From Octopus vulgaris (Eukaryota), in NCBI GenBank assembly GCA_951406725.2, contig OX597817.1, positions 126,046,001 through 126,110,000 on the forward strand: DNA of 64,000 bases, written 5' to 3'. This document shows, piece after piece, positions 5,719 through 56,709 of this stretch (its first letter is position 1; every line of letters begins with the position of its first letter). Under the pieces are notes generated by a model. That model did not search any database, was not told where the DNA came from, and was given only the letters and a program-made list of their open reading frames with translations. A program made the position numbers and the translations under genes.

Positions 5719-5764
<46 letters not shown>

Positions 5765-5772
<8 letters not shown>

Positions 5773-6367
5773 TCAATATAGGGTGGCAAAAAATTTCGTA
5801 GAATTTATTTGCCACCAGCGGCCTAGTGGGAAAAAATTAAATAGTCATAGACCATTTATAAGTTCAACATCACAATCAAGGAATGGCCATAATAGGCCAT
5901 TCACCCACTAGAAATAACAGCCAAAGCTTCAACCGCAAAATAACATCAATTCCGCAAACCAGGAGAAAATTAAAAAAAACATTTATCCTGTAATTTCTTA
6001 TACGATGCACCGTTTCATCTATTGTTTAATGGTAAACTAACCTGATTAAATTAAATCAAGCCAATCTTCCATAGGCCGATAGATTCGTCAGTAAGAAACA
6101 GCCAAGATCCGAGCAGATATTATCACGAGGCATCTCTATCCCTGCCTCGGCAATATCTGACCTAAAATTTTCAAATCATCGCACTCGCGCCAAATTTATC
6201 GGCAGCAAATATAAGCCGCCGATTCCATTACGGAATTAACCACAAAATTCATAATTAATCAATATAGGGTGGCAAAAAATTTCGTAGAATTTATTTGCCA
6301 CCAGCGGCCTAGTGGGAAAATATTAAATAGTCATAGACCATTTATAAGTTCAACATCACAATCAAGG

Positions 6368-6369
<2 letters not shown>
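5765..6369 (-). mobile_element. HHR-bearing retrozyme/pLTR-like element: 486-nt unit plus 119-nt terminal direct repeat, between (TA)n tracts
   Basis: 5765-5883 is nearly identical to 6251-6369 (offset 486). Internal hammerhead. (TA)n on both sides. No ORF of note. Confidence 0.85.
5994..6098 (-). ncRNA. Type I hammerhead ribozyme
   Basis: Minus strand: TTTCTTA-CTGACGA-ATCTAT[56 nt]ATAGAT-GAAA-CGGTGCATCG-TA^TAAGAAA. 7-bp helix I, 6-bp helix II, near-palindromic helix III, GUA cleavage triplet. Confidence 0.9.
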
Positions 6370-6418
<49 letters not shown>

Positions 6419-6421
<3 letters not shown>

Positions 6422-7218
6422 GTGGTTAATCTATAGAGTTAATCTATTTTTTCGTTATTTTTCATTTGTCCTGCCCGATTACATTCATGGCGTGTTGAAT
6501 TAATGCTTGAGAACAATTCTTTAGTGGTGGATTCCCTTTGCGGATATATTTCTAGCGTTAGAGTGACCACATGTGGTCTCTCTCTTATTACTTGTATTAA
6601 TAATTTTTACTGTATCCCAGTTTTTTCGCTAGGCCACTTGGTGTTTTAAATTGATGTTATTAATTAATATTCAATTTTTTTCACCCTTATTGTGATTTTA
6701 ATTCTAAATTAATATGTTCTCAAACTGGCAGTAAATTACTGGGGTAGTATTTACATCCGGTATTTTGAACGTGCCAGGAGTGAGGATATTTGAACGTAAC
6801 TGCAAATGTAATCGGTTGTGCCGTTCGCCTTTGCACGGTTTCGTATGGATTTTGGCGTTCGGTTCAGCAAATTATATTTTTGATATACTCTACTGAGGAT
6901 TCGAAAATGATTAGGTAAACTTACTCAATCTATTAACGATGAAACAATTGTATAGATTTAATCTATTTTTTCGTTATTTTTCATTTGTCCTGCCCGATTA
7001 CATTCTTGGCGTGTTGAATTAATGCTTGAGAACAATTCTTTAGTGGTGGATTCCCTTTGCGGATCTATTTCTAGCGTTAGATTGACCACATGTGGTCTCT
7101 CTCTTATTACTTGTATTAATAATTTTTACTCTATCCCATTCTTTTTCGCTAGGCCTCTTGGTGTTTTAAATTGATGTTATTAATTAATATTCAATTTTTT
7201 TCACCCTTATCGTGATTT

Positions 7219-7220
<2 letters not shown>
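6419..7220 (+). mobile_element. HHR-bearing retrozyme/pLTR-like element: ~519-nt unit plus ~266-nt direct repeat, between (TA)n tracts
   Basis: 6434-6699 is nearly identical to 6953-7219. The HHR lies immediately before the second copy, and the first copy starts at the cleavage site. Confidence 0.85.
6887..6958 (+). ncRNA. Type I hammerhead ribozyme
   Basis: ACTCTA-CTGAGGA-TTCG[33 nt]CGAT-GAAA-CAATTG-TA^TAGATT. The other repeat copy reads TAGAGT, a perfect helix I partner. Helix III is the palindrome CAATTG. The first helix II pair is a T-T mismatch. Confidence 0.8.
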
Positions 7221-7263
<43 letters not shown>

Positions 7264-7271
<8 letters not shown>

Positions 7272-7563
7272 TGAGGGTACTACTATTCGTAGATACCAAC
7301 ACGCTAAGAGGGACCAATGCGGTCAAAACTACTAAAAATAAACAAAGTTTTGCATTCGGTAAAATTTTGTTTATTTTTAGTAGTTTTGACCGCATTGGTC
7401 CCTCTTAGCGTGTTGGTATCTACGAATAGTAGTACCCTCAATATAATATAAATGAATATTTTCAAAGAGGAAGAATTTACGGATTTTTTCTCTTACGAGG
7501 TTTTTCACGGTGACTACTGATAATTTCTTTTAAAGATTTTATCCTCAATTGTTAATTTAATTA
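7264..7563 (+). mobile_element. Fold-back element (about 90-bp hairpin plus unique 3' tail) between (TA)n tracts
   Basis: 7264-7346 is the reverse complement of 7366-7448. The tail ends TTTTATCCTCAATTGTT, like the element ending at 35097. Confidence 0.75.
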
Positions 7564-7587
7564 ATATATATATATATATATATATAT

Positions 7588-8116
<529 letters not shown>

Positions 8117-8329
8117 CAAAATCACGATAAGCGTGAAAAAGTTGTTTTATGTCCTTAACATGTCCCTGTTACCAAAGACTGTATATATATATGTAATGTA
8201 GCAATTTGCAACAACCAATAATTAACGCAACCAAACTTCCACATGTTACTTTTGACAATCTTTTTCCAAAGAGTGAAACCGGTAAAGTAAATAAACATCT
8301 TTTAAATTGCATTTTCAAACCTTCTTTCG

Positions 8330-22324: not shown

Positions 22325-23465
22325 ATAACATTATTTACAATGGACGGAGTGGTGTTCTCACCTTGTTTGTTGTTATCATAACGTCTTCTGGCGGAATTTC
22401 GTACCAAAATGAAGTACACTGTTCTCATTCCTAAAGTATGTTATTTTTCTGTTGATATTAATTTTTCAAGTCCCTGCCTGGGATTGAACTTAGAATCCGA
22501 AGCTTAGAAGTCCACGCTCTTATTCACAATACTACATGATCATGGGCAATAATAGAGTGAATTTTAGGGCTTATATACCTAGTATTTTATTTATTCTTAA
22601 TACTGGTTCCCATCTTACATTCATATCTGCACTAGGTCTGCTTATTGTGTCCTAGAATATGTGCAGCCTCTTTCAATTTTTGTATTTCCCAGAGGTGTTA
22701 TCTGTCGATTATATTAACTACATCCCACAGCGGAGGGTTGTCTCCGTTTTTCCATACATGATCGGGTATACCTGATTTTTCAACACGTCTACATTGCTTA
22801 TTACTGGTGATAATGGCATACTCATAGCTAAACACTCATCCTGTCGATATATATCAGTATCTACTTTGAAGCAGGTAGTTTCTACGCAGAAATTCAACAT
22901 TTCCATCAGGTTTTCTATTGGTAGAGTAGTTCGTTCTTTCCGAGAGGTATCCGTTACTAGTTTGTCTTGAATCACCAATATTGCTTCATTCGTTGAGACT
23001 TTAATAAACAGACTTATCACATCTAGACTCACCATCTCATTGTATCCAATGGGGGTATCCTTGATCAATTCTGTGAAGTGAACGGAATTCTTCACATACA
23101 ATGTTGACTCACCGGCTAATGGACTGATTATACTCTCAAGGAAACAGGCTCAGGGAATGACATGCCGAACCTCCACAGCTCACTATATGTCTTAATGGAA
23201 ATCCATCCTTATGAACCTCCAGGAAACCGTACATATGTGGCAGCTTACTGCAATGTTGGGTCCGTTGTCTGTACTTCATTGGTATGAAATGAGCATTGTT
23301 CTTGATTAAGATCTGTGACAATTTCCACTCTGTTTTCAGAATTGAGTCATTCTTTATTTTGCTGTAGCTACCATCACTTATGAGACTTTCTGAATTTTCC
23401 GAGTATTCAGACTTGTTCATCAGCACCGTAGCGTTGCCCTTATTAGCTGGAAGTATTATGATGGA
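22325..23465 (-). mobile_element. Decayed Penelope-like element (RT, GIY-YIG C-terminus, 3' UTR/pLTR with tRNA-like module)
   Basis: IILPANKGNATVLM, LPHMYGFLEVHKDGFPLRHIVS, MVSLDVISLF, YRQDECLAMSMPLSPV (ORFs 23136-23426 and 22718-23101), then KLKEAAHIL near 22650-22680. The 3' region is homologous to 51960-52095 and 54361-54560. Confidence 0.9.
22468..22536 (-). other. tRNA-like module in the PLE 3' region (degenerate)
   Basis: Minus strand GTGAATAAGAGCGTGGACTTCTAAGC..CTAAGTTCAATCCCAGGCAGGGAC aligns to the tRNA-like module at 54397-54458. Confidence 0.55.
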
Positions 23466-23801
23466 ACTGTACTAAATACAATACACATTTAACGCTTGAT
23501 AAACTGAATTCAAGAGATGAATTAACTGCTGATGACTATTGTAAATTATTTCGATTAAGCGAAAAAGAAATATCACAAGCCTCACTTATTACCGACAATT
23601 GACATGAATTTAGGGACGATACACTCTACATTTTTCTCTCTCTGGATAAGAGAAGACAACTGTATACTCTAGGTTGTGGAACCATGTTATCTCTAAGGCA
23701 ATTTTCTATGCTGATTTTAGAGCCACAGGCCTTTAGATAATGGACTCATAAAAAATAATAATGCATAATTTAAAAAAACTTCGACGTGAATAACATGGAA
23801 A

Positions 23802-55899: not shown

Positions 55900-56709
55900 T
55901 ATTAACAGGAACTCCGTATACAAGACTAACCATTTTTGAGATAAACTGGGCCACAACAGGGACACTCGATGGCACCAACTAAATATGAGATTTCGAAGGT
56001 TATAAAACTCTCACATAAAGCTTTTTCGAACCAGGAAATCAAAATTCTTGCTAAGGGATTGATGTGCACCTCAACGCCACAAATTTCGAACCTAAACGAT
56101 ATACAAAATGATATCCAAGAATTCTGCAGAAAACTTCGCATCACTGAAGAACTGCTGGATAAAGTTAATAATGATCAATCAATCCTTCACAATAAAAGTA
56201 ACTACTGTCCGACAAGCGAAAAAAATCAAACTCTGGATAATTTTGTGATGTGATATCCAGTTACCGCTACAATTTACTCCCAACCCCAAAATTTAAAACA
56301 AATACAAGTAGAGAAAAATGTGAAATCATCAATAATCTCAAGGAGGATGACACAATAATTATAATAGAAACTGACAAAGGGAGTACTGTAGTTATCATGG
56401 ACTCAGAAAAAATACATAAACACTACCCTAATCTTCCTTCGAGACAATAGCTACTATGAAAAAAATCAACACCTACAGTCAATCCAAGATAATGACCAAA
56501 TTGTCTACCCTTATTCACAAGTTCATCATGATAGATCGCTACTCACTACACATTATTTTCTCTCCTAGTTTCTTTCTGTGTTCCTTTCTAACGAAGAGCG
56601 ATGGCTCGAAGCGTTAAAGATTGTTTCACTTCCCGAGTGTTAAACTAATACATGGTTGTTTTTTACACTACCTGTTTTCGTCTTCTGTTTTTGTTGTGAA
56701 ATCTCCCTA
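55900..56709 (+). mobile_element. Internally deleted Penelope-like element (N-terminal/RT start fused to pLTR)
   Basis: VIKLSHKAFSNQEIKILAKGLMCTSTP..DIQEFCRKLR and NLKEDDTIIIIETDKGSTVVIMD, then a pLTR with degenerate HHR (CTAACGAA-GAGCGATGGCTC-GAAG-CGTT-AAAGA, 56588-56620) ending CTCCCTA-(TA)n. The 5' boundary is uncertain and may extend to ~55300. Confidence 0.82.

Follow-up and report, generated by a model that had tools for sequence, protein, structure and literature searches.

The 605-nt insert embedded in a (TA)n run of the window (the whole 64-kb stretch of Octopus vulgaris DNA analyzed here, to which all coordinates refer) raises the question of which kind of RNA was copied into this site and which enzyme inserted it. 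The insert is composed of a 486-nt unit and a 119-nt repetition of the same unit: the direct repeat (5765-5883/6251-6369) is 99% identical at a spacing of 486 nt, with a single difference at 5835/6321, and the longest stop-to-stop frame wholly within the element comprises 54 aa, i.e. there is no ORF. The terminal repeat, the (TA)n on both sides and the lack of an ORF had been noted in a preliminary description of the locus and were reproduced by repeat and frame scans. The anatomy of the copy is given in Table 1; positions in the unit are designated by the coordinate q (q1 = 5765), with the RNA reading from high to low q and the predicted cut at q237/236.

Table 1. Coordinates of the retrozyme copy and its flanks in the window (strand "." for the target repeats).
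Feature	Position	Strand	Remarks
Single-armed retrozyme insertion, 1.24 units	5765..6369	- (RNA sense)	3' end 5765 = site A; 5' truncation 6369
Repeat unit, 486 nt	5765..6250	-	units across the family 481-493 nt
Second pass into the unit (terminal redundancy), 119 nt	6251..6369	-	length varies between copies
(TA)n target, 3'-end side	5720..5764	.	(TA)n run itself spans 5720-5767
(TA)n target, 5'-end side	6370..6418	.	tandem-repeat run
"Tail" of 104 nt separating the two 3' ends	5765..5868	-	site A = 5765
Site B (5869) and hairpin 5881-5902	5869..5902	-	predicted hexaloop 3' edge, just downstream of the hairpin
GC-rich hairpin immediately preceding site A in RNA sense	5782..5816	-	fold
Hairpins 6115-6159 and 6198-6223	6115..6223	-	fold
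Type I hammerhead	5993..6099	-	stem I 6099-6092/6000-5993 (8 bp), stem II 6084-6079/6022-6017 (6 bp)
Hammerhead core CUGACGA; GAAA	6091-6085; 6016-6013	-	descriptor scan
Hammerhead stem III, palindromic tetraloop	6013-6002	-	GUA triplet, predicted cut between 6001/6000

The single mid-element hammerhead of the preliminary description was recovered as one type I ribozyme on the minus strand, the sole match of both a strict and a one-mismatch descriptor on the two strands of the window. The label "textbook" given to it is appropriate for the core and not for the periphery: stem II carries a long inserted hairpin, 68 nt separate the core from the GAAA, and a palindromic loop caps the short stem III. 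Rfam did not detect the hammerhead, neither at the gathering score nor at E<=5, probably because stem II contains this stretch of 68 nt. Across the family's 12 commonest variants, core position N7 takes all four bases and the other core positions are constant. With singletons omitted, 21 of the 62 distinct variants remain, each observed two or more times; in these, 99.3% of the cells are paired, and compensatory pairs in stems I and II, two in number, have changed on both sides; this pairing score was reached by 4/500 shuffles, kinship among the sequences inflating such scores. The loop-3 palindrome of an older subfamily has changed from UGCA to UAUA by a double change with its self-complementarity kept, a retention that fits the dimeric hammerhead model of PMC4209133. 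The freedom of N7 within a constant core, the compensatory pairs and the retained palindrome suggest, at the level of sequence, a ribozyme under selection, and self-cleavage of the family transcript is predicted from the conservation, the covariation and an excess of cDNA stops before the cut (see below).

Folding in circular mode yielded a highly paired predicted circle (MFE of -150.2 kcal/mol, z -5.7 versus 40 shuffles, 67% paired) in which the three hairpins pointed out previously are formed; the antisense strand reached z -9.0 too, and the high degree of pairing is thus not strand-specific. Sites A and B are both placed in hairpin loops of the circular fold, each preceded by a GC-rich hairpin and the motif UUGAUU; in the consensus fold the B loop is retained and the A region is unpaired. 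The whole-unit covariation analysis (36 units, 136 pairs) revealed one compensatory pair and none in the hairpins 6115-6159 and 6198-6223, so that folding energy is the single support of the hairpins outside the ribozyme.

The window copy is a member of a large family: the 2.8-Gb assembly contains 767 exact occurrences of a 23-mer that covers stem III of the hammerhead together with the cut site (control 0). A first set was made up of the 47 loci listed for C1 and the initial part of C2, all of which were taken, and of 13 top matches. The tracts of the fetched loci are <0.1 to 14.3 units long, and the identity of the window copy to other copies is up to 99%, with zero differences over q22-200 to a short insertion with both ends (L168). 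The arrays contain at least two consecutive hammerhead-bearing units, as against one in the window copy. The 5' ends show no preferred phase in the unit (105 ends, chi-square p=0.51), and there is neither an LTR architecture, the ends varying in phase, nor any protein coding. Judged by its sequence traits (hammerhead in each unit, tandem units, non-coding, self-paired predicted circle), the family is assigned to the non-LTR retrozymes; this element class is already known, and the family shows unusually clear mechanistic footprints. Contigs of the runs X1, X2 and X8, whose RNA status is a guess, and of X16 cover the unit between (TA)n flanks; such coverage is uninformative on strand, ends and circles, the unit junction being present in genomic arrays too. 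Eight contigs of X16 have (TA)n loose ends at 5869, the site B junction, and since X8 and X16 bear other organism labels, the family may be common to related species.

The preliminary description had expected the copies to share the 3' end at 5765 and to differ in the length of their redundancy. The redundancy length does vary; the 3' ends, however, fall at either of two sites, nearly always against (TA)n: site A (5765, q1) with 703 and site B (5869, approximately q105) with 466 exact (TA)n junctions genome-wide (control 0 for each), 104 nt apart. Two such 3' ends are the "tail" signature of Penelope-like elements (PLEs), at about three times the published length of 30-40 nt, and further traits of PLE mobilization are present in the family, namely (TA)n microsatellite targets, 5' truncation and head-to-head inversion. 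A tail at one end only of inverted PLE insertions has been described before (PMC8557442, PMC3846280), and in the PLE termed PAc the tail is defined by two reverse-transcription start sites (PMC11167929). A literature search retrieved no retrozyme with a two-end signature or an approximately 100-nt tail and no counts of arms sharing a template; supplements, which lay outside this search, could list related families or longer tails.

The two ends are strictly combined. Of 41 head-to-head inverted pairs, 35 were A+B, none A+A or B+B, and 6 had an unclassified end (p=3e-11). A second set, assembled so that the choice of loci would not favor the hammerhead, took in all exact A junctions listed for C1 (52) and C2 (44), with 18/96 overlapping the first set: these 96 A-anchored loci comprised 68 A+B insertions, no A+A, 8 with another end and 20 single arms, B+B pairs being undetectable by design. 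The two arms of one insertion agreed at 1036/1048 family-polymorphic sites (773 expected if the templates were independent), and their divergence was 0.68% compared with 2.96% from locus to locus; in one locus (L107) the arms differ at a family polymorphism, with arm-specific alleles. The stopping points are coupled as well: where arm A stopped at q140-243, arm B stopped before the cut in 17/18 cases, otherwise in 7/50, and a replicate on C2 with criteria fixed beforehand gave 10/11 versus 4/19 (p=3e-4). The simplest reading is a single RNA molecule per insertion event; alternatively, sibling transcripts of one locus may have served as the two templates. A collision of arm A with site B was considered on the basis of 8/52 loci on C1 and was rejected, because the signal was not reproduced on C2 (2/44).

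The form of this RNA can be approached through the behavior of the arms at the cut site, which is passed by 98/164 arms, by 34 of them twice or more. The scissile bond was scar-free in 184/184 passes (178 identical, 6 variant elsewhere) in a sample chosen in part for an intact site. Within the last 36 nt ahead of the cut, stops amounted to 28/128 in the first pass and 5/69 in later passes (p=0.006; strict rule, a looser one giving 31/128 for the first pass), compared with 2-8% for first-pass stops in the nine other intervals. The first-pass excess belongs mostly to one subfamily (15/29 versus 1/11; stratified p=0.014; p=0.17 without that subfamily). An initial stop test (5 observed versus 4.5 expected) had been biased, because its loci were picked for carrying the hammerhead; it was discarded and redone on the A-anchored loci. 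Templates that were partly cleaved linear pieces and partly closed would be expected to give such an excess confined to the first pass. In addition, 11 locus-private variants were fixed in every pass in 10/34 loci, 9 of them in both arms, 27 distinct homogenized haplotypes were found among 37 loci, and inherited unit-specific variants were limited to 1 in 5418 in-register cells. Copying of a circle is, on this indirect evidence, plausible and the probable origin of the multi-unit copies.

The strongest competitor retains the same PLE priming at two sites and dispenses with the circle: multi-unit copies would be made from uncleaved linear read-through transcripts of arrays. The two ends, the A+B pairing and the scarless junctions are accounted for equally well, and such a template fits an in-register variant of locus L093 that both arms share in their first pass and in no other, as from a linear multimer, as well as the neighboring copy of a 519-nt family (described below), in which one cut site was crossed and synthesis stopped at the next. 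In line with it, unprocessed RNA was the dominant substrate of the green anole PAc in vitro and hammerhead mutants were without effect on insertion (PMC11167929). Linear copying, however, can neither lengthen arrays nor spread a mutation to all units, yet the family has its many homogenized haplotypes and next to no inherited unit-specific variants; a constant chance of meeting a cleaved 5' end would predict the stop excess in every pass, yet later passes are at background. Moreover, hammerheads with a short stem III cleave better in tandem (PMC7229834, PMC4209133). Linear read-through as the source of the multi-unit copies is regarded as rather unlikely.

Growth at the DNA level, i.e. insertions of at most about one unit followed by minisatellite-like tandem duplication and conversion, draws on the long arrays L065, L080, L095 and L104-L106, whose unit-specific variants recur with a period of 2, 3 or irregularly, indicating that later DNA-level duplication or multimeric templates contribute too; local amplification from PLE terminal sequence is also discussed in the preprint 10.64898/2026.07.22.740005. 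As the general origin of the arrays it is improbable, given that both inverted arms exceed one unit with one haplotype in 12/68 A+B insertions, that 5' ends occur at all unit phases, and that a first duplication requires existing redundancy, the very thing to be explained. That the unit is a pseudo-LTR or the 3' end of a coding PLE and the copies its truncated forms is highly improbable, even though PLEs characteristically show such an end pattern, (TA)n targets and inverted arms (PMC8557442, PMC3846280): the unit is devoid of an ORF, an arm extending beyond one unit runs back into the unit, arrays reach 14 units, and 0/138 fetched loci continue from an arm into a PLE ORF (tblastn with one Neptune-type protein, which a distant RT could escape). 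The idea of a permuted copy made around a 486-nt circle therefore survives; periodic units and scattered 5' ends were found, the circle itself being a putative template.

The enzyme is likely supplied in trans; the element does not contain the ORF with RT and GIY-YIG domains that characterizes autonomous PLEs. Intact PLEs with both domains are present in the same genome as many 781-aa frames with a C-terminal GIY-YIG domain and a CxxxxxCxxC linker, a motif ascribed to the Neptune and Nematis clades (PMC8557442). In the 781-aa family, too, there are two ends, separated by 38 nt, and the inverted copy L046 shows one of them at either terminus; other coding PLE families sampled have tails of approximately 33-43 nt, not 104. 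A blastn comparison of the unit with 34 GIY-YIG-centred regions (from the 148 matches listed of 6136 candidates) revealed no shared terminus, and three GIY-YIG matches without PLE similarity had no long ORF at the match. The 781-aa family (L043-L050) is a young one; several of its copies include a further ORF upstream, and a U3-A8-type hammerhead accompanies its tail of 38 nt. Within the window, decayed PLE-like coding fragments lie at 55930-56553 (37% to the N-terminus of the 781-aa protein) and at 22718-23471 (read from the translation), both without a Pfam match.

Several other elements accompany the insert. The same (TA)n run harbors a copy of a second retrozyme family (6432-7222, plus strand; 519-nt unit, 1.5 units) with a type I core at 6893-6899; the base of its stem II is mispaired (U-U), its stem III is palindromic and minimal, and the 5' end of the copy is no more than 2 nt away from the corresponding cut site. 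This family has two 3' ends approximately 104-106 nt apart, paired in 11/13 distinct two-armed loci, and the long tail is thus not unique to the 486-nt family. An inverted 3'-end fragment of the 519-nt family (8065-8140) adjoins a long (TA)n. Hammerhead-like motifs with a U3-A8 core variant were observed near (TA)n at 8240-8295 (plus strand) and in L106, L062, L090 and L063, and the flanks of the fetched loci contain many unrelated hammerhead families, several ending approximately 135-145 or 190-260 nt past the cut site. A near-perfect 99-nt inverted repeat (96%) beside (TA)n at 7253-7459, with miRNA-like Rfam scores below threshold only, may represent a short insertion with two arms from a different family. 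Where the arms of short insertions meet head to head (L199, L224, L203, L194, L178), short A/T repeats are reiterated in up to approximately 8 copies of an 8-10-nt unit, which could result from telomerase-like reiteration by the PLE RT or from templated insertion by a repair polymerase.

Compared with the metazoan non-LTR retrozymes (Cervera & de la Pena 2020, PMC7229834; Li et al. 2026, preprint 10.64898/2026.07.22.740005), the family shares tandem non-coding units, each a few hundred bp long and with one type I hammerhead, low GC, a highly paired predicted circle, dispersal as monomers to multimers and co-occurrence with PLEs. Its 486-nt unit is larger than the approximately 170-400-nt circles of invertebrate retrozymes and within the 51-972 bp consensus range of the preprint. 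The long hairpin inserted in stem II sets it apart, as do the two-end tail, the (TA)n targeting and the paired inverted arms, which are not reported for retrozymes in the available text of these two sources; circle expression has been shown for metazoan retrozymes (PMC7229834), whereas the octopus circle is predicted from the genome. With the EN+ PLEs of the Neptune/Nematis/Naiad and Poseidon clades (PMC8557442, PMC3846280, PMC11167929) the family has in common 5' truncation, partial tandems, a head-to-head inverted copy, (TA)n targets and an optional tail at one end; in contrast to their RT/EN ORF, 30-40 nt tail and minimal hammerhead, the octopus element combines the absence of an ORF with a 104-nt tail and a full hammerhead, and it lacks sequence similarity to the coding PLEs sampled from its own genome. 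Plant LTR retrozymes (PMC7229834, PMC7761336) are likewise non-autonomous, hammerhead-processed and propagated via a circular RNA intermediate (a putative one in the octopus), but carry their hammerheads, of type III, within LTRs and possess PBS/PPT as well as target duplications of 4 bp, in contrast to the type I hammerhead and the permuted variable ends described here.

The reading preferred here is that of a non-coding hammerhead repeat with two fixed 3' ends, inserted in trans by a PLE RT/endonuclease that primes both (TA)n strands on one RNA, which for copies longer than one unit is likely the 486-nt circle; as a whole it is probably correct. Tandem arrays would be transcribed, their hammerheads would free monomers, and a host ligase would close them, as in other animal retrozymes. 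The PLE protein would cut both (TA)n strands, and cDNA synthesis would start at A on one and at B on the other, as the end pattern suggests. Each cDNA extends over 0.05 to 14 units; the two occur as a head-to-head pair, or a single one is retained, which is the case in the window; cleaved linear RNA would cause both arms to end shortly before the cut site, and closed RNA would allow them to cross it scar-free and to circle again. A more specific version, twin-primed rolling-circle reverse transcription, is put forward tentatively: one PLE dimer may start two cDNAs at duplicated stem-loop cassettes 104 nt apart on one circle, both being pasted into one (TA)n cut, with cleaved unligated RNAs giving the short inserts.

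The role of the window copy itself has to be revised. It had been proposed as a template of circular RNA; with one hammerhead, its own transcript cannot be cut twice and no 486-nt monomer is released, so that the copy is likely a product of the circle and not its source. Multi-unit arrays elsewhere in the genome would be the source of circles, and a transcript of the window copy could yet provide a cleaved 3' piece bearing both start sites.

Repeats of non-LTR retrozymes are described as lacking a conserved motif that points to a helper element (PMC7761336), and their mobilization mechanism "remains to be elucidated" (10.64898/2026.07.22.740005); the mover of animal retrozymes and the use of the circle as template are left open in the accounts of PMC7229834, PMC7761336 and the preprint. 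The octopus family offers countable footprints on both points (the pair of start sites, the strict A+B pairing, a single haplotype in each insertion and the coupled stopping), and for testing in vitro it provides a defined substrate of 486 nt whose start sites are mapped, along with intact PLE ORFs of the same genome. If the proposed mechanism is true, these footprints would be direct evidence that the circles of animal retrozymes are true transposition intermediates mobilized by PLE proteins.
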